Below are positions 3,353-23,783 of a stretch of DNA of 24,208 bases, piece by piece. The stretch lies in the IMG/VR virus record IMGVR_UViG_3300040985_000165, positions 1 through 24,208 of that record; one strand, given 5' to 3'. Below the pieces are notes generated by a model. It was not told the origin of the DNA. It saw nothing but the letters and a program-made list of their open reading frames with translations, and searched no databases. The DNA comes from a virus (taxonomy: Duplodnaviria; Caudoviricetes). Within the stretch, counting starts at the first letter, position 1. Each line of letters begins with the position of its first letter. A program made the translations under genes and the position numbers.

Positions 3353-5532
3353 TGGCAAACAAAATACAACTGCGCAGAGATACTTCATCTAACTGGACTA
3401 GCAGCAATCCTACGCTGTCTCAGGGTGAACTTGGGCATGAAACAAACACTGGCAAGCTAAAGGTTGGCGATGGCTCGACGGCATGGACTAGCTTGGGCTA
3501 TGTTGACACAACTTACACATCCTCAAATTTTACGCATGATGACTTAACTGGTTTTGTAGCAAACGAGCATATTGATTGGACTGCGGATCAAGGCTCAACA
3601 AACATTCATGCAGGTAATTACACCGATACAACTTACACGCACCCAAACCACTCAGGTGAGGTCACTAGCACAGGCGATGGCGCTACGGTCATAGCTGACA
3701 ACGTGGTCGATGAGGCCAACCTCAAGGTCAGCAACTCGCCCACCAACGGTTATGTTCTGACTGCGCAATCAGGTAACACTGGCGGTCTGACTTGGGCAGC
3801 AGCTTCAGGTGGTGGTGCTGCGTTAGAGCTATATGCTGAAAACCCAAGTACGCCTACTGCGCCTAGTGCCACTGGAACCAATGCAGTAGCCATTGGAGAA
3901 AATTCTACATCTAGCGGGAACCGATCAACAGCAATAGGCAGAAACTCTTTTTCTGGTTCTGCTGATGCAACAGCGGTTGGGGCTTATTCTATCGCAACAA
4001 CTGGAAGCTATGCCAATGCTTTCGGACACCATGCTTACAGCTACGGACAAGACGGAACGTCAATCGGTAGAGCATATTCTTCTGGCACAGACAGCTTCGC
4101 AGCAGCTATAGGTACTAACTCTTCAAGTTATGGGGCTAGTGGTGTTAGTAGTATTGCGATGGGCGAAGATGCCAAGGCAAATGCAGCCTATGCAATTTCC
4201 ATGGGCTATCTTACTACCGCCTCTGGTATTTCTTCAGCCGTGTTTGGCGCTGTTGGCTCAACGGCTTCTGGCACAAGAAGCCTAGTAGTTGGCGGTCAGG
4301 GTCAAACCGCAAGCGGTGATTATTCGGCTGTTCTAGGCGGTCAAGGGAACACAGCATCTGGTGAACACTCCGCTGTGATTGGAGAAAGTTCTACTGCATC
4401 TCATGCAAATTCAGTTTCAATTGGGGACAGCGTTACAAGTACGGCAGCAAACCAAGTTAATCTTGGTGGAACAACTGATACAGTACGCATCTCAGAAAGT
4501 TATACCCTGCCAACCACAGACGGCTCTGCAAACCAAGTGCTTCAAACTAATGGCTCAGGGGTCTTATCCTTCGCTACTGTAAGTGGCGGGGGTTCTCCTG
4601 ATCTTTTTGCTGAAAACTACGATGGATTATCTACCTTACCATCTGCTACTGGTACAAATGCTTTTGGAATAGGGGTTGGCGCAATTTCTTCAGCCTCTTT
4701 GAGCATTGCTTTGGGTACGTCTAGGGCTTACGGCACTGAAAGTTTTGCTTGTGCCATTGATAACAACAGTACCACATTTGGTGCTGGCGGTTCTCAGGCC
4801 ATTGCAATAGGAAGAATTAGTCGAGCGCACGGAAACCAAGCAATTGCGATTGGCTCTGCGGCAAATTGTAGTGGAAACGATGCACTTAGCATTGGCGAAA
4901 ATAGTACAACGTCAGGCCGTTATGGTTCTACTCTTGGAAATTCCTCTTCAACAAGTGCTGAAGGGGCGTCTAGTATTGGCTATGGTAATACAATTAACTC
5001 AGGCGCAAATAGTTCAGTAGCTTTAGGCGCTGATAATAAAAACAATTCAGTAGCTGGTAAATTAACGTATGGAGCTAATGATACTGTAGGTAGTGGTGAG
5101 CCTGCGGGAAGCCCTAAGACTGGCATACAAGTTATTGTAGCTCACACAACAGACGCTACCGCTACTGTTGCAACAACCCCAACTAGCTCTGGTCAAGCTA
5201 CAGCAGCAAGTGACACAATACCGGCACTGCCCAACAACTCTGCGTTTGCGTTCCACGGCACAATCATTGCTCGCGAAAGTGCAGCGGCTGGCAGCGACTA
5301 CGCAAGCTGGGAAATCAAAGGTGCATTGCTGCGTGATGCAAATGCTGCATCGACTGTTTTGGGCAACGGCATTGTGAACTCTCTTTACCATACAGCAGGT
5401 GCATCAGCGTGGGCGGTTGCCTTATCAGCGGATACAACAAACGGCGGTCTTAAAGTTGAGGTTACTGGTGCAGCAGCTACGAATATACGTTGGGCTGCAA
5501 CTGTTAATACAAGCGAGGTTATATACGCATAA
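3352..5532 (+). CDS. Tail fibre/adhesin: Mtd_N-like N-terminus, two YadA-head repeat blocks and a C-terminal beta domain
   Basis: IQLRRDTSSNWTSSNPTLSQGELGHETNTGKLKVGDG (Mtd/hyaluronidase N-terminal motif); about 14-aa repeats such as SATGTNAVAIG and SSGNRSTAIG (YadA head/Hep_Hag). Confidence 0.8.
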   Translation: MANKIQLRRDTSSNWTSSNPTLSQGELGHETNTGKLKVGDGSTAWTSLGYVDTTYTSSNFTHDDLTGFVANEHIDWTADQGSTNIHAGNYTDTTYTHPNHSGEVTSTGDGATVIADNVVDEANLKVSNSPTNGYVLTAQSGNTGGLTWAAASGGGAALELYAENPSTPTAPSATGTNAVAIGENSTSSGNRSTAIGRNSFSGSADATAVGAYSIATTGSYANAFGHHAYSYGQDGTSIGRAYSSGTDSFAAAIGTNSSSYGASGVSSIAMGEDAKANAAYAISMGYLTTASGISSAVFGAVGSTASGTRSLVVGGQGQTASGDYSAVLGGQGNTASGEHSAVIGESSTASHANSVSIGDSVTSTAANQVNLGGTTDTVRISESYTLPTTDGSANQVLQTNGSGVLSFATVSGGGSPDLFAENYDGLSTLPSATGTNAFGIGVGAISSASLSIALGTSRAYGTESFACAIDNNSTTFGAGGSQAIAIGRISRAHGNQAIAIGSAANCSGNDALSIGENSTTSGRYGSTLGNSSSTSAEGASSIGYGNTINSGANSSVALGADNKNNSVAGKLTYGANDTVGSGEPAGSPKTGIQVIVAHTTDATATVATTPTSSGQATAASDTIPALPNNSAFAFHGTIIARESAAAGSDYASWEIKGALLRDANAASTVLGNGIVNSLYHTAGASAWAVALSADTTNGGLKVEVTGAAATNIRWAATVNTSEVIYA

Positions 5533-7050: not shown

Positions 7051-7053
7051 ACA

Positions 7054-7194
7054 ATGAGCCTCACGATAAATCACCAGACGAATGACATCAGCGCTACCAG
7101 TGGCTACGTTGCCATTGGTGGCTACAAGATTGCTGTAGTGGCAGCACTACCGTCATCTCCAGACAGCAACACGATTTACTTTGTGACAGGATAA
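7054..7194 (+). CDS. 46-aa mini tail-fibre connector peptide (missing from the ORF track)
   Basis: ATG 7054 to TAA 7194 encodes MSLTINHQTNDISATSGYVAIGGYKIAVVAALPSSPDSNTIYFVTG. It fills the gap with 3 nt on each side, and its ALPxxPDxNTIYFV end resembles upper-tail-fibre C-terminal motifs. Confidence 0.75.
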   Translation: MSLTINHQTNDISATSGYVAIGGYKIAVVAALPSSPDSNTIYFVTG

Positions 7195-7197
7195 GCG

Positions 7198-8094
7198 ATG
7201 GTTCAGACTGCATACCTTGGCTCTACTGCATTTAGCAATATAACTGTCGGAAGCACAACCGTATCTGCTGTCTACGTTGGAAGCACTAAGATATGGGAGG
7301 CAGGGTCTAGTTGGACTAACCCAGATTTGTCTAGTGCTAGTTACGACAGTGTTAGCTTTGATTTAACGACACAGGATAGTCTGCCGTTTGAAATTCGTTT
7401 TAATAACGACGGCACAAAAATGTATATGGTTGGGAATAGCAATGATAGTGTTTATGAATATACATTAAGCACTGCTTATGATGTATCAACTGCATCATAT
7501 AATAGTGCAAGTCTGTCAGTTACATCTCAAGAAACGGTGCCAGTCGGGTTATTTTTTAAGCCAGATGGTACAAAAATGTATATTAGCGGCTTAGTAAATG
7601 ATGCTATTTTCCAATATTCATTAAGCACAGCTTGGGATTTATCAACAGCATCGTATGACAGTGTTAGTTTTTCAGTTAGCTCACAAGACGGCATACCATA
7701 TACATCCTTTTTTAAACCAGATGGTACAAAGTTTTATGTGATTGGACTAGATACAGATAATGTATTTCAATATTCTCTCAGCACTGCTTGGAATTTATCA
7801 TCAGCATCGTATGATAGTGTTTCATTTAATGTAACTACTCAAACGACTACCCCTTGTTCAGTAGTTTTTAATCCTAACGGAGATAAAATGTACATAAGTG
7901 ATTTTAGTGCTGATGATGTATTTCAATATTCATTAAGCACTGCTTGGGATGTTTCAAGCGCAAGCTATGACAGTGTTTCGTTTGATGCATCTACTCAAGT
8001 AAGCAACGCAACAAGCCTTGAGTTTAAGCCAGATGGTTCAAAGATGTATATCACCGATAATATGAATGGCATCGTCTACCAATATTCAACGTAA
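7198..8094 (+). CDS. Putative receptor-binding beta-propeller protein (five 52-aa repeats)
   Basis: N-terminal ITVGSTTVSAVYVGSTKIW motif followed by repeats DLSTASYDSVSF...FKPDGTKMY...QYSLSTAW; low GC. Confidence 0.7.
   Translation: MVQTAYLGSTAFSNITVGSTTVSAVYVGSTKIWEAGSSWTNPDLSSASYDSVSFDLTTQDSLPFEIRFNNDGTKMYMVGNSNDSVYEYTLSTAYDVSTASYNSASLSVTSQETVPVGLFFKPDGTKMYISGLVNDAIFQYSLSTAWDLSTASYDSVSFSVSSQDGIPYTSFFKPDGTKFYVIGLDTDNVFQYSLSTAWNLSSASYDSVSFNVTTQTTTPCSVVFNPNGDKMYISDFSADDVFQYSLSTAWDVSSASYDSVSFDASTQVSNATSLEFKPDGSKMYITDNMNGIVYQYST
7324..8091 (+). repeat. Five degenerate 156-nt (52-codon) tandem coding repeats
   Basis: ccagatggtacaaa at 7561 and 7717 (156 nt apart); caatattcattaagcac recurs; the five protein repeats align without gaps. 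Confidence 0.9.
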
Positions 8095-9103: not shown

Positions 9104-9149
9104 GCGTTTTAACCGTTCTGATATATAATAGACCAAACGGAGTAAACCG
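9101..9149 (+). promoter_or_regulatory. Putative sigma70-like promoter nested in an RBS-occluding hairpin
   Basis: Perfect TATAAT at 9124-9129 with a weak -35 (TAGGCG, 9101-9106) 17 nt upstream; CCGTT (9113-9117) can pair with AACGG (9136-9140), which overlaps the GGAG RBS. Confidence 0.45.
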
Positions 9150-17475: not shown

Positions 17476-19551
17476 ATGGAACTGAAGCCCAAAACCCGTG
17501 ACGAGATTGAAAGCATTGTGCAGGCCGCCGTGGATGACGCGGTGTCGTTTGTTGAGGCGGAGATCAGCGAGGACAGGATCAAGGCGCAGCGCTACCTTGA
17601 TGGCCGCGTTGATATTGGCCATGAGGACGGGCGCAGCAAAGTGGTTGCGACGAAAGTTCGGGATGTTGTGCGCGCGACCAAGCCGAGCCTGATGCGCGTT
17701 TTTCTGAGCAGCTCGCGGCCGGTGGAATTCGTACCGCGCACGCCTAACGCCGTGGCGATGTGTGAGCAGGCTACGGAGATGATGCACCATGAGTTTGTCC
17801 GCCTGGGGGGATACCGTGCGCTGAACGACGCTTTCAGCGATGCCATGGTCAAAAAGCAGGGCATCATCAAGGCATATTGGCACACCTACCCAGAGGCCAG
17901 TATTCACACGTTCACCGATCTGTCTGATGAAGAGCTGATGCTGCTGACCTCAGATGACGGCGTTGACGTGCTGGAGCAGTCCACCGAAATGTCGATCACA
18001 GTTGACGAATTTGGCGCGGAGGTTGAAATGCCTGTCCACGCCGTGAAGCTCAGCCGCAGAAAGATGAAAGGCGAGCTGTGCATGGAAAGTGTGCCCCCGG
18101 AGGAATTCTTTGTGAACCGCTCCGCGCGGTCGATGCAGGACGCCTTTGTGGTCGCGCACCGCACTGAAATGCGCGCCGGGGACGTGATCGGCATGGGCTT
18201 TGACCCGCAGGTCATCAACAAGCTTGACGCCTTTGACGGCGGCTCTGAGATGACGGAAACGGAGCAGTTTGAGCGCGACGGATTTAGCCACGACGTTGAC
18301 GAGGATGACCTAGACCCGTCGATGAAAAACGTCAGTATCACAGAGGCATATATGCGCTGTGATGTGGACGGAACGGGCGTTCCAATTCTGCACAAATTTC
18401 TGCTTGGCGGTACGAAATATGAGCTGCTGGATTTTGAACCGTGCGACGAAATACCATTCGCCAAGTTTGAGGTTGACCCAGAGCCGCACAGTTTCTACGG
18501 CCGCAGCCTAGCTGAAATCGTCATGGACGATCAGGACGCCGCAACGTCAATTCTGCGTGGGATCCTGGACAACGTGGCAATGACCAACAATCCGCGAATT
18601 GGGATCGTCGATGGTCAGGTTTCGATCGACGATGTTTTAAACAATGAGATAGGCGCGATTGTGCGGATGCGCCAAGCCGGGGCTGTGCAGGATTTGGCCG
18701 TGCCATTTACCGCTGGTCAGACGCTCGGCGCGCTTAGCTACATGGACACGCTTGTGGAGCAAAAAACAGGGGTGACGCAGAACGTGGCGCTGAACCCGGA
18801 TGCGATGCAAAGCACCACCAAGGCCGCCGTCACCGCAACGGTTGAAGCAGCGGCAGGGCAGATTGAGGTGATGGTGCGCAATCTGGCGGACGGGCTGCGC
18901 GATCTGTTTGGGATCATGCTGCGCCTGATGCACAAGAATGTTGATGAAGAGCAGATGATGCGCCTCAACGGCCAGTTTGTGCCGGTTGACCCGCGCGTCT
19001 GGGACACGTCAATGGACTGCCAGATCAACGTGGGCTTGGGCACAGGCCGCGAAGAAGAGCGTCAGGCAGCTCTGGCGCAGGCGCTTCAAATGCAGACGAT
19101 GGTTTATCAGAATTACGGGCCGATGAACGGCTTGGTCAGCTTGACGAATATCCGCAACACTCTGGCGGACAGCTTAGCGCTGTCTGGCGTCAGAAATGCT
19201 GACCGCTACTTTGCGCCGATCACGCCAGAGATTGAGCAGCAGATGCTCCAGATGCAGCAGCAGGCGCAGGCGCAGCAGGGTCAGCAAGACCCCAACGCGG
19301 CGTTCATCCAAGCTGAGCAAGTCAAAGCGCAGGCCAAGATGGCGAGCGATATGGCGAAGCTGCAACTGGATGCGCAGAAAGCGGTGGCCGAGGATGATCT
19401 GAAACGCGATCAGATGGCGCAAGACCTGATGGTGGATGCGGCGAAAGTCGTGGGCCAGTACGGCACTGCCGTGGACATCGCCAGAGTTAAAGCAGAGCAA
19501 GAAAAGCTGCGCACAGTCGCCGGGATTGCTCAACCTCAACAGGTGCAATAA
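17476..19551 (+). CDS. Portal protein (P22/SU10-like) with Gln-rich C-terminal barrel
   Basis: 691 aa; ESVPPEEFFV, PHSFYGRSLAE, LRGILDNVAMTNNPR and INVGLGTG motifs, C-terminal Q-rich coiled coil; RBS AGAGGA. Confidence 0.9.
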   Translation: MELKPKTRDEIESIVQAAVDDAVSFVEAEISEDRIKAQRYLDGRVDIGHEDGRSKVVATKVRDVVRATKPSLMRVFLSSSRPVEFVPRTPNAVAMCEQATEMMHHEFVRLGGYRALNDAFSDAMVKKQGIIKAYWHTYPEASIHTFTDLSDEELMLLTSDDGVDVLEQSTEMSITVDEFGAEVEMPVHAVKLSRRKMKGELCMESVPPEEFFVNRSARSMQDAFVVAHRTEMRAGDVIGMGFDPQVINKLDAFDGGSEMTETEQFERDGFSHDVDEDDLDPSMKNVSITEAYMRCDVDGTGVPILHKFLLGGTKYELLDFEPCDEIPFAKFEVDPEPHSFYGRSLAEIVMDDQDAATSILRGILDNVAMTNNPRIGIVDGQVSIDDVLNNEIGAIVRMRQAGAVQDLAVPFTAGQTLGALSYMDTLVEQKTGVTQNVALNPDAMQSTTKAAVTATVEAAAGQIEVMVRNLADGLRDLFGIMLRLMHKNVDEEQMMRLNGQFVPVDPRVWDTSMDCQINVGLGTGREEERQAALAQALQMQTMVYQNYGPMNGLVSLTNIRNTLADSLALSGVRNADRYFAPITPEIEQQMLQMQQQAQAQQGQQDPNAAFIQAEQVKAQAKMASDMAKLQLDAQKAVAEDDLKRDQMAQDLMVDAAKVVGQYGTAVDIARVKAEQEKLRTVAGIAQPQQVQ

Positions 19552-19597
19552 CTACTACATGTAGTTTTTCACACCGTTTTTAGACTATATATAGTGT
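19552..19597. promoter_or_regulatory. Tandem palindromic operators resembling NrdR boxes
   Basis: ctACTACATGTAGTtt (19552-19567) and agACTATATATAGTgt (19582-19597): perfect 12-bp palindromes 30 bp apart; recalled NrdR consensus acaCwAtATaTwGtgt. Confidence 0.65.
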
Positions 19598-19609
19598 TTC
19601 TGGTATTAT
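19581..19609 (+). promoter_or_regulatory. Putative sigma70 promoter for the scaffold/capsid operon
   Basis: -35 TAGACT (19581-19586), 17-nt spacer, extended -10 TGgTATTAT (19601-19609), in an AT-rich intergenic gap. Confidence 0.6.
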
Positions 19610-19635
19610 CTTAGCGACTGAAATCGCTAGGATAA
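19606..19635 (+). promoter_or_regulatory. RBS-sequestering hairpin
   Basis: TTATCTTAGCGA-ctgaaa-TCGCTAGGATAA: 12-bp stem with one G-U pair; the 3' arm contains the AGGA RBS of the TTG start at 19639. Confidence 0.65.
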
Positions 19636-19638
19636 ACA

Positions 19639-19884
19639 TTGAAAAACGACATCCGAATTGAGGCAGAGGAAGCCCGCCGCCTAAAAAGCGACACGGCATT
19701 CAAGCATTTCCTTGATCTGGTGCGTGAAAATCAAATCCAAGCGTTCAAGTCCAGCGCCGCCGACGACATCGACGGCCGTGAAGAGGCGCACGCAATGATG
19801 CGTGCCGTCGATTTGATTGAGGTACAGCTCGACGCGGCAATTGCCGCAGAGGTGCTTCTGAAACGTAAAAAAATAAGAGGTTAG
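19639..19884 (+). CDS. Small helical protein between portal and scaffold
   Basis: 81 aa, TTG start with AGGA RBS; a small gene at this position is common in podovirus head modules. Confidence 0.65.
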   Translation: MKNDIRIEAEEARRLKSDTAFKHFLDLVRENQIQAFKSSAADDIDGREEAHAMMRAVDLIEVQLDAAIAAEVLLKRKKIRG

Positions 19885-19888
19885 CACC

Positions 19889-20878
19889 GTGGAAACGACT
19901 GACTTAGACAGTGCTGTTGACAGCATCTTACAAGACCCAGACATAAAGTCTGATGAAACTAATCCAAGCGAAACTGCGGAAATTGAGGTTGAGCCAACTG
20001 ACGACGGTCAGAGCGACGCCCCGGAGGAAACAGCGGAAAGCGAGGATGTTGTCGAAGCGTCCGACGACGCCGATACCGGCGAAGAATTAGACGTTGAAAT
20101 TGATGACGATGATCTAGCAGAGCCAATTGAAACGACCAACCTCATCCCCGTCAAAATTGACGGCAAAGAAGAGCGTTGGACATTGGATCAACTGAAGCAA
20201 TCTGCGGCTGGTCAGGGGTACATCAACAAACGGATGCAGGAAGTTGCTGCGCTTGAAAAGCAATACAAGCAGCAATTCGAAGCATTAGCCCAACAGCAAC
20301 AGCAAGCTCTGGAGCTGTACCAACGTGCGGAAGAAGGCGGTCTGATAGCCCCTGCCCCACCGTCCAAAGAGGATTTCACAGCCGATCCAATTGGCTACAT
20401 GGAAAAGAAATTCGAATTTGACGAGGTCAAGGCGCAGTATGACCGAGATGTCGCGGTGTTACAACAAACGCAGCGTCAGCAAAGCGCGCAAGAACAACAG
20501 CAAGAACAAGCCTATTTGGCGGATCAAGCGGAGCAGCTCAAGCGGCTGATCCCAGAAATTGCGCACCCCGAAAAGGGCGCTCAATTACGTCAACAGCTCA
20601 TCGACACAGGCGTTGAATACGGATTTTCCCCAGAGGAAATTCAAGGCGTCAAGGATAGCAGGCATGTGTTGGCGCTGAACGATGCGCGCAAATATCGGCA
20701 GCTCTTAGCCAAGAAGAAAGCTGCAAAAAAAGAGAAGGGTGAAACCCTCCAACCAGTCCGCGCTGGTGCAAAAAAACGTCCAGAAAATGCTGCGGCTACC
20801 AACCGCAAAAAGGCGCAACAGCGCCTGCAAAAGTCAGGCCGCATCGAAGATGCAATTGACCTGATTATGAACAGCTAG
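19889..20878 (+). CDS. Capsid scaffolding protein
   Basis: GTG start with GAGG RBS; acidic disordered N-terminus, VKIDGKEE..TLDQLK motif, coiled coil, basic C-terminus; directly upstream of the capsid gene. Confidence 0.82.
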   Translation: METTDLDSAVDSILQDPDIKSDETNPSETAEIEVEPTDDGQSDAPEETAESEDVVEASDDADTGEELDVEIDDDDLAEPIETTNLIPVKIDGKEERWTLDQLKQSAAGQGYINKRMQEVAALEKQYKQQFEALAQQQQQALELYQRAEEGGLIAPAPPSKEDFTADPIGYMEKKFEFDEVKAQYDRDVAVLQQTQRQQSAQEQQQEQAYLADQAEQLKRLIPEIAHPEKGAQLRQQLIDTGVEYGFSPEEIQGVKDSRHVLALNDARKYRQLLAKKKAAKKEKGETLQPVRAGAKKRPENAAATNRKKAQQRLQKSGRIEDAIDLIMNS

Positions 20879-20891
20879 AAAGGACGATCCA

Positions 20892-21848
20892 ATGGCTCAG
20901 CCGAGTAACACGTTTGACAGCTATGATGCTGTCGGTCTGAAGGAAGACATTTCCTCGCAGATCACCCAAATTAGCCCCCAGGACACGCCGTTTTACAGCA
21001 AGTCCAAAAGGACTAGCGCCAGCAACACTTTGCACGAATGGCAGACCGATGCGCTAAGAAGCAGCGCGGCCAATTCTCACATTGAAGGTGATGCAACCAC
21101 AGCAGAGGCGCGCACAGCGACCACACGCTTGGGTAACTACACCAACATCTTCAAAAATGCCGTTGTTGTTCCAGACACCGATGAGGGCACAGATAAGCAT
21201 GGCCGAAATCGGGATTTAGCATATCATGTGCTAAAGGTCGGTGTTGAGCAAAAGCTCGATATAGAAAAGGCGATGTTTGCATCCAACGCAAAGGTTGCGG
21301 GTAACTCCACAACTGCGCGTGAAATGGCAGGCGCACCTGCTTGGATAAAAACCAACACTTCCTACGGCGCTAACCAAGGCGCTGACCCAGCGGGCACTGG
21401 CGCGGATACGCGGACAGATGAGACAACTACCCTCATCGCGTTTTCGCAAGCCAGGTTTGACACCGTTATGCAGTCAATTTGGGAAGAAGGCGGAAAGCCT
21501 GACACCGTGTATCTATCTGCATTCCAGATGGATAAAGCCCTCGGCTTCACGGGTAACAATAATCAGCGTTCAGCCGTGCAGGCCGGTGACGAGCGTGTAA
21601 TCAAATCGCTGGCGGTTTACGTCACTCCGTGGGGTTCTATCGAATTCGTGCCATCGCGCGAAAACCGCTCACGGGACGTGTTCGTAATGCAAGACGACAT
21701 GTGGAACGTGGCAGTGCTGCGCCCCACCAAAAACGTCGCCTTGGCGAAAACTGGCGATAATACCACCAGGCAGATCACCACAGAACTCACAATGGTCTGC
21801 AAAAATGAAGCAGCAAGTGGTGGAATTTTCGACAACACCACATCTTAA
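20892..21848 (+). CDS. Major capsid protein (DUF5309/SU10-type HK97 fold)
   Basis: 318 aa; EDIS..I..ISPQDTPF, HEWQTDAL, EG.A, NYTNIF, E.KLDIE and LAKTGD motifs; RBS AAGGA; followed by a terminator. Confidence 0.9.
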   Translation: MAQPSNTFDSYDAVGLKEDISSQITQISPQDTPFYSKSKRTSASNTLHEWQTDALRSSAANSHIEGDATTAEARTATTRLGNYTNIFKNAVVVPDTDEGTDKHGRNRDLAYHVLKVGVEQKLDIEKAMFASNAKVAGNSTTAREMAGAPAWIKTNTSYGANQGADPAGTGADTRTDETTTLIAFSQARFDTVMQSIWEEGGKPDTVYLSAFQMDKALGFTGNNNQRSAVQAGDERVIKSLAVYVTPWGSIEFVPSRENRSRDVFVMQDDMWNVAVLRPTKNVALAKTGDNTTRQITTELTMVCKNEAASGGIFDNTTS

Positions 21849-21854
21849 AACTTA

Positions 21855-21889
21855 GGTGGGGGCGGCTTTGCTGCCCCCTCCCCTTTTTT
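21855..21889 (+). terminator. Rho-independent terminator after the capsid gene
   Basis: GGGGGCGGC-ttt-GCTGCCCCC stem (21858-21878) with a T6 tract at 21884-21889. Confidence 0.8.
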
Positions 21890-23694: not shown

Positions 23695-23783
23695 TGGAAG
23701 TTTGGCAAATGCTTCTGCTTGCGCTTGTTGCGATTAACACGGCCGCGAACTGCTATCGGCTGCTTTTGGAGCTAGACAGATGA
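23694..23783 (+). CDS. 29-aa single-TM peptide (missing from the ORF track)
   Basis: MEVWQMLLLALVAINTAANCYRLLLELDR; coupled by TAATG to the holin and by ATGA to the endolysin. Confidence 0.6.
   Translation: MEVWQMLLLALVAINTAANCYRLLLELDR

Follow-up and report, generated by a model that had tools for sequence, protein, structure and literature searches.

Bacterial operators of the repressor NrdR, such as those of nrdAB, nrdHIEF and nrdDG in E. coli, nrdRJ and nrdAB in S. coelicolor, and nrdJ in Rhodobacteraceae, consist of two 16-bp boxes with an AT-rich centre, about three helical turns apart, which overlap the RNA polymerase site (PMC13584703, PMC12051234, PMC9110341; here and below, a citation stands for the sections and tables of the paper drawn upon). 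The highly conserved positions of a box are C4, A6, A8, T9, T11, and G13 (PMC13584703). For DNA binding, NrdR needs both dATP and ATP, and the dATP level goes up in cells with little DNA synthesis (PMC9110341). Binding has been seen with linkers of 14–17 bp between the boxes, and efficient repression in vivo with linkers of 15–17 bp (PMC12051234). The phage locus described here shares this architecture. It differs in that it precedes head genes in a genome where no ribonucleotide reductase (RNR) gene was found, and in that its linker is 14 bp instead of 15–16 bp.

Two phage systems are comparable in other respects. Spo0A boxes on the Bacillus phages phi29 and Nf also place a host factor on phage promoters, so that host physiology restrains the lytic programme, in Nf including late transcription (PMC2731898). 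There, the signal is sporulation and the sites lie mainly on early promoters and origins, whereas a dATP/ATP signal acting on virion-gene promoters is proposed here. At gene e and I-TevI of phage T4, the ribosome site is buried in a hairpin when transcripts read through, whereas transcripts begun at the adjacent late promoter are unable to fold this way (PMC3014915). The present locus resembles T4 late genes in its proposed tie to replication and in a predicted hairpin over the ribosome site, whose left arm is cut by the predicted start. However, T4 couples the two processes via its own sigma factor and co-activator, gp55 and gp33 (PMC3014915), while here the coupling would come from a host metabolic repressor. 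Host-factor control of phage genes is a known kind of regulation; what would be new is an NrdR-type operator on a head-gene promoter. No published account of NrdR sites in promoters of phage virion genes was found in a search by title and start of abstract that covered few subscription papers. A few NrdR candidates outside RNR genes are reportedly listed by Rodionov and Gelfand 2005.

The window and its paired boxes

The window, i.e. the whole 24-kb stretch of DNA analysed (24,208 nt), is a piece of a marine podovirus-like phage with all genes on one strand, in the order tail and fibre genes, ejection proteins, portal, an 81-aa gene, scaffold, capsid, small genes, holin, and endolysin. The nearest cultured phage is Octadecabacter Antarctic DB virus 2 (MW805364; OANV2), with 69.5% identity in the capsid and 44.7% in the portal. 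It has the same order of tail genes, portal, small gene, scaffold, capsid, and lysozyme but, unlike the window, no box pair, its best pair scoring below zero. Because the closest cultured phage is an Octadecabacter virus, the host is presumed to belong to the Rhodobacteraceae, a placement that goes back to the 69.5% capsid match only. Capsid relatives in genome contigs are spread over bins of several groups, and a scaffold query against metagenome contigs gave zero confirmed relatives. Elsewhere in the window, a gene for a 298-aa repeat protein among the fibre genes (7198–8094) has a low GC content (0.35 in 7501–8000) and no PHROG match, and is likely a recent acquisition. The features around the box pair are as follows.

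17476..19551, + strand: portal gene (phrog_1216 portal, E 8e-132), which closes the long upstream tail/ejection/portal operon
19552..19567, no strand: NrdR-type box 1, 16 bp, immediately after the portal stop codon; C4, A6, A8, T9, T11, and G13 present
19582..19597, no strand: NrdR-type box 2, 16 bp, covering the -35 region and spacer; the six conserved positions present
19601..19609, + strand: extended -10, TG-n-TATTAT, of the predicted head-gene promoter (promoter scan)
19606..19635, + strand: 12-bp hairpin; the left arm starts inside the -10 and the right arm carries the SD-like AGGA (19629–19632) of the 81-aa gene
19639..19884, + strand: conserved 81-aa gene with a TTG start, function not known; first gene behind the predicted promoter
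19889..20878, + strand: head scaffolding protein (phrog_3927, E 8e-39)
20892..21848, + strand: major capsid protein (phrog_1328; 69.5% identity to the OANV2 capsid)
21858..21887, + strand: intrinsic-terminator-like hairpin and T-run 3' of the capsid gene, with a 9-pair stem of which 8 pairs are G-C

The original prediction placed two perfect 12-bp palindromes, 30 bp apart, at 19554–19565 and 19584–19595, and these coordinates were verified. It also put them in the longest intergenic gap. The 87-bp gap (19552–19638) is indeed the longest without a visible reading frame, but a gap of 147 bp (7051–7197) is longer and contains a 46-codon ORF, as read by eye; another long gap, at 23695–23779, measures 85 bp. 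Box 2 matches the NrdR consensus used in that prediction at 15 of 16 positions by hand count, as had been claimed, and its positions 4–16 are those of box 1 of E. coli nrdAB (PMC13584703, Table 1). Between C4 and G13, A or T occupies 6/8 positions in box 1 and 8/8 in box 2, for a guide value of at least ~63%.

The boxes were scored with an alphaproteobacterial NrdR matrix derived from 40 upstream regions of the long nrdJ gene, in genomes from the family of one Rhodobacteraceae bin. The six conserved positions are fixed in this matrix by construction, since the 37 of the 40 stretches that were used all held them. The two best sites of the window are the two boxes, box 1 at the top with 17.3 bits and box 2 second in the 24 kb with 15.9 bits. 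Host nrdJ boxes score 11.4–24.6 bits (n=37), so the phage values fall in the lower part of the proximal-box range. The host nrdJ promoters themselves (L357-L396, Rhodobacteraceae) combine a degenerate upstream NrdR box, lying over the -10, with a strong downstream one. First-order Markov resampling of the window gave no pair above 11 bits in 1000 trials, the best reaching 7.2 against 15.9 for the weaker of the actual boxes, and resampling of the AT-rich spacer gave 0/20,000 pairs above 5 bits. A single 15.9-bit box appears in 2.6% of window resamplings. Judged by its sequence, the pair is not a product of chance and is a real, non-random NrdR-type operator. CtrA, GANTC, and LexA motifs are absent from the spacer.

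The original prediction noted that NrdR boxes typically lie about three helical turns apart; the two boxes here are paired, but their 30-bp distance is one short of the canonical 31–32 bp, the linker (19568..19581) being 14 bp long against the usual 15–16 bp. For four NrdR proteins, affinity at 14 bp is ~2- to 17-fold below that at 15–16 bp (PMC12051234). The KD of the E. coli protein is 169 nM at 14 bp versus 82–91 nM at 15–16 bp; the corresponding values are 154 versus 28–45 for S. coelicolor (3- to 5-fold weaker), 699 versus 41–55 for S. pneumoniae (13- to 17-fold), and 2 versus 1 for Listeria (about 2-fold) (PMC12051234). Given these affinities and the in vivo data, the window operator should be usable but probably weakened. 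A 14-bp linker is also noted for T. maritima nrdJ (PMC13584703, Table 4). Among the host nrdJ promoters, a second, degenerate box (C4 and G13) lies at 31 bp in 23/37, at 30 bp in 4, and at 29 bp in 11, and the 30-bp spacing recurs within this phage clade.

The predicted promoter and its hairpin

The promoter scan listed the proposed TAGACT-17-TATTAT promoter, with a TG before the -10, at 9/12, a match that is weak on its own because the scan gave 7 sites versus 3.6 expected. The predicted promoter does lie upstream of the scaffold and capsid genes, as stated originally, but the conserved 81-aa gene sits between it and the scaffold gene. This small gene has zero matches in PHROG and Pfam and 249 related stretches among viral contigs. 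Box 2 ends 3 bp before the TG-n-TATTAT, transcription is predicted to start near 19616, and the main head transcript likely ends at the terminator-like hairpin at 21858..21887. In the 46-bp gap before gene 9150 (9104–9149), an AT-rich stretch with TATAAT is possibly a further internal promoter, without boxes.

Comparison with related spacers divides the promoter elements: TAGACT is not kept, whereas the spacers have in common the (extended) -10 and a T-tract near -40. In the eight correctly placed spacers the -10 occupies the same place, 33–35 nt before the start codon (35 nt in six, 33 nt in two). When 11 spacers are aligned on the -10, the T-tract is shared by pair-bearing and box-less ones, and TG or GG mostly precedes the -10. 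The tract, often CG-n-n-ATTTTGG-like, lies ~22–23 bp before the -10 in the window (19572–19583) and in G094 (near 5370–5412), and also in the L296, L302, L319, L322, L624, and L626 spacers. It may serve as an UP-like element or be bound by a late activator of the phage. It is probably an older late-promoter element; since it falls in the linker in the window, the boxes flank it.

The hairpin at 19606..19635 is more stable than expected (z -5.5, 0/200 shuffles). Folding predicts that the ribosome site is paired in read-through RNA and about half open in RNA from the predicted start site. The same holds across spacers: in read-through folds, the unpaired fraction of the ribosome site is at most 0.03 in 7/8 correctly placed spacers, versus 0.14–0.57 from the predicted start. 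The position of the hairpin is kept across spacer-bearing relatives, and its sequence is not.

Distribution of the pair among relatives and other phages

A redundant set of 174 loci was examined, of which 124 showed the portal and the 81-aa gene and 50 were not classifiable. In 113 of the 124 classifiable loci the gap between these genes is at most 15 bp, i.e. there is no spacer, and conservation of the spacer throughout the family was rejected on this count. The remaining classifiable loci comprise two with the window's spacer, six with spacers of 50–79 bp that have a -10 and no boxes, and three with inserted genes. A second, partly overlapping set gave 63/80 loci with a gap of at most 15 bp. 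The junction accepts insertions, namely a 2-kb gene block, a 331-bp gene, or a methylase-like gene (L023:1457-3434, L275, L284, L579, L078, L079). Among 24 larger related records, 22 have no pair anywhere, so that the pair is an optional add-on and no family trait.

The relative G001, whose genome is complete (39.5 kb, about 92% identical), also has the spacer, which differs there by three changes. Box 1 takes two of these, at its positions 5 and 15. The A/T content of box 1 in G001 is 5/8, at the ~63% limit. Two sequencing runs show a change at position 7 of box 2 (among the 40 of 463 difference rows viewed), and strain changes within the boxes thus hit positions 5, 7, and 15. The A5C change is neutral in published work, in which positions 5 and 7 are neutral (PMC13584703, Table 6). 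The spacer is not significantly more conserved in G001 than neighbouring silent sites (3/87 versus 9/160 changes, p 0.27).

A motif scan returned 21 loci, six of which are portal spacers with a pair: two window twins and four members of a sister lineage (G094/G097/G098/L543) with 71% portal identity. The sister lineage matches the window at 10/16 positions in box 1, 7/14 in the linker, and 12/16 in box 2. It nevertheless retains box 1, the 14-bp linker, box 2, the distance to the extended -10 (box 2 again ending 3 bp before the TG), a hairpin of different sequence, and the 35 nt from the -10 to the start codon. Alignment of the portal-scaffold spacers, proposed as a check on the boxes, therefore gave a divided answer, as the layout is kept in the sister lineage with changed letters but the pair is absent from most relatives. 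The predicted operator is conserved in one subclade, and given the sister-lineage layout a recent functionless insertion was dropped as a reading of the boxes. A quick portal tree, built on the 75 of 166 rows left after removal of near-copies, unites all spacer-bearing close relatives in one group (support 97). It places the two pair lineages together with the spacer-less row L611 (support 87), which makes a single gain followed by loss possible.

G001 carries a second pair (L205:15945-15991, 15-bp linker) directly before the first gene of a long structural operon; the window's counterpart would fall just past its left edge. The top four matrix sites of G001 are the four boxes of its two pairs, each pair directly before a virion operon. 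Extra pairs occur in the sister lineage too: the homolog of window gene 10587 has one upstream, and in G097 one also follows the terminase gene. In G001 as in G094, each of the two pairs overlaps the extended -10 of a virion operon. Two candidates were not counted: a regex pair in G078/G087, whose better box has only 5.8 bits, and a 33-bp pair of G097 that lies inside a coding gene. G097 also has a strong lone box of 17.8 bits upstream of the small terminase gene (L632:2602-2617), with no partner at 29–34 or 41–42 bp.

Similar pairs occur further afield. Two distant phages of the same portal family (33% portal identity) have a pair at the portal end that overlaps coding sequence, the boxes lying over the last codons of the portal gene (L439:1801-1844, L445:1801-1845). 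The tandem pattern was found at no fewer than 120 viral loci, with spacings among the matches listed of 31 bp (73), 32 bp (30), and 30 bp (7), versus one match for a reversed control pattern. Many of these matches belong to one group of large gut phages (90–215 kb, L082-L201), whose genomes carry several near-identical pairs each, in front of diverse and mostly non-structural genes. A second pattern matched 121 loci (32 bp, 52; 31 bp, 22; 30 bp, 13; 33 bp, 12; 28 bp, 11; other, 11). The first 80 of these loci held 70 distinct pairs, of which 26 precede packaging, head, tail, or lysis genes, 10 other known genes, and 34 unassigned ones; these are raw counts, with labels set by hand. Two of the 26 (L453, L459) should be dropped, as they lie inside coding sequence. 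The 129 proteins scanned next to second-pattern pairs include zero RNR; among 73 hand-picked proteins from the first pattern set, terminase, portal, or capsid stands beside nine loci, and there is one nrdG.

Binder and proposed role

Identity as NrdR boxes, pairing, and placement over the head-gene promoter, the core of the original prediction, were all borne out by computation. The genes behind the promoter are head genes, unlike the RNR genes of the classical NrdR regulon. As the prediction also held, no nrd gene is nearby: the RNR large subunit of class I or II is found in 0/5 pair-bearing records, three of which are at least 90% complete. In the same five records neither nrdR nor an ATP-cone gene was found, and nrdR is present in 60/61 genomes of the likely host family. 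Since nrdR, ATP-cone, and RNR genes were not found in these five records, the boxes are most likely bound by host NrdR.

The reading that we prefer, with a probability of roughly two in three, is that the 81-aa gene, scaffold, and capsid are transcribed from an internal late promoter in the spacer, over which this lineage has placed a functional operator for host NrdR, and that NrdR silences the head genes there until dATP falls or the repressor is outnumbered. In a cell making little DNA, NrdR loaded with dATP and ATP would bind both boxes as a tetramer and block RNA polymerase. Once phage replication starts, dATP would be drawn down, and the operator would be copied with the genome (at least two pairs per copy); NrdR would then leave or be outnumbered, and the head genes would come on. 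Behind the -10, the hairpin would prevent translation of the first gene from transcripts that read through from the portal, so that synthesis of the 81-aa protein would depend on the predicted promoter. Lytic infection by the pneumococcal phage SpSL1 raises the host NrdR regulon (PMC6755750), and phage growth can therefore lift NrdR repression. Since derepressed host RNR would replenish dATP, a switch based on dATP alone could shut off once more during packaging. For this phage we infer the identity of the host, the start site, binding in vivo, repression, and the trigger of relief (a fall in dATP versus titration or another). Contigs of one metatranscriptome cover the portal and scaffold-capsid and none lies at 19483–19909; as assembled contigs cannot rank genes or show a start, they were set aside.

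Of the other readings, the one that survives best keeps host NrdR as repressor and assigns it to a quiet state, either a prophage or a non-growing, high-dATP cell, the operator being irrelevant after the choice of lysis. It would fit the rise of dATP at low DNA synthesis (PMC9110341), an internal promoter with a good extended -10 that would otherwise leak, and the tyrosine integrase, resolvase/recombinase-like protein, and several HTH proteins encoded by G001. We consider it unlikely, as no prophage of the lineage was found among genome contigs (the best matches reach 75% and are mostly on short MAG contigs) and no homolog of the G001 integrase was found in the pair-bearing G097, which is 93% complete.

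The pairs could also be decoys by which replicating genomes soak up NrdR and derepress host RNR, the effect on head genes being secondary. The missing RNR of the five pair-bearing records, the response of the host regulon to SpSL1 (PMC6755750), and the several pairs before varied genes in large gut phages would agree with this. A decoy, however, could sit anywhere, and the pairs of G001 and G094 all overlap the extended -10 of virion operons, which makes this a rather unlikely account.

A phage-encoded late activator or repressor that binds the palindromes, with a convergent likeness to NrdR sites, was the alternative originally offered. It could draw on small winged-helix/HTH-like genes shared by G001 and G097 (LexA-DNA-binding-like and MarR-like, by weak Pfam matches), on the recurrence of the odd 30-bp spacing in the clade, and on the T-tract near -40, which suggests a phage-specific promoter factor. 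This alternative has lost ground and now appears improbable: no ATP-cone gene was found in the five pair-bearing records, and changes in the boxes are confined to positions that NrdR leaves free, namely 5, 7, 10, and 12. As in NrdR sites, positions 4, 6, 8, 9, 11, and 13 are kept, partly by construction, as these positions were used in finding the boxes. Moreover, unrelated phages have the same pairs at NrdR spacing, and box-less sister spacers retain the T-tract and -10 without the palindromes. Finally, boxes without a function, arising as a by-product of the AT-rich promoter, are very improbable: TGTGGTAATAT, a frequent extended -10 here, by itself gives half a box, a single box of this strength does turn up in 2.6% of window resamplings, and most relatives manage without boxes, but no spacer resampling in 20,000 held a pair above 5 bits, and the genomes of two lineages that differ in box letters each have pairs at two to three promoters.

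Returning to silencing of the head genes until replication, we lean, by a little, towards a broader proposal, in which small phages with neither RNR nor a late sigma factor have, on repeated and independent occasions, made NrdR a replication-coupled switch for late genes. The steps visible in this family would lead from coupled genes without a spacer to an internal promoter with a hairpin over the ribosome site, then to NrdR boxes around the promoter, and lastly to copies at two or three virion operons. How virion genes are delayed until replication is unexplained for most marine phages that use host RNA polymerase. If the proposal is true, borrowing NrdR would give such phages a delay that costs no gene, with burst timing tied to the nucleotide status of the host. 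The site spans 60 bp and follows published binding rules, and sister phages with and without boxes provide natural controls; in Caulobacter, a strain deleted for nrdR has been made (PMC12186491). The role of NrdR, described as specific to RNR genes, would then extend to phage development.
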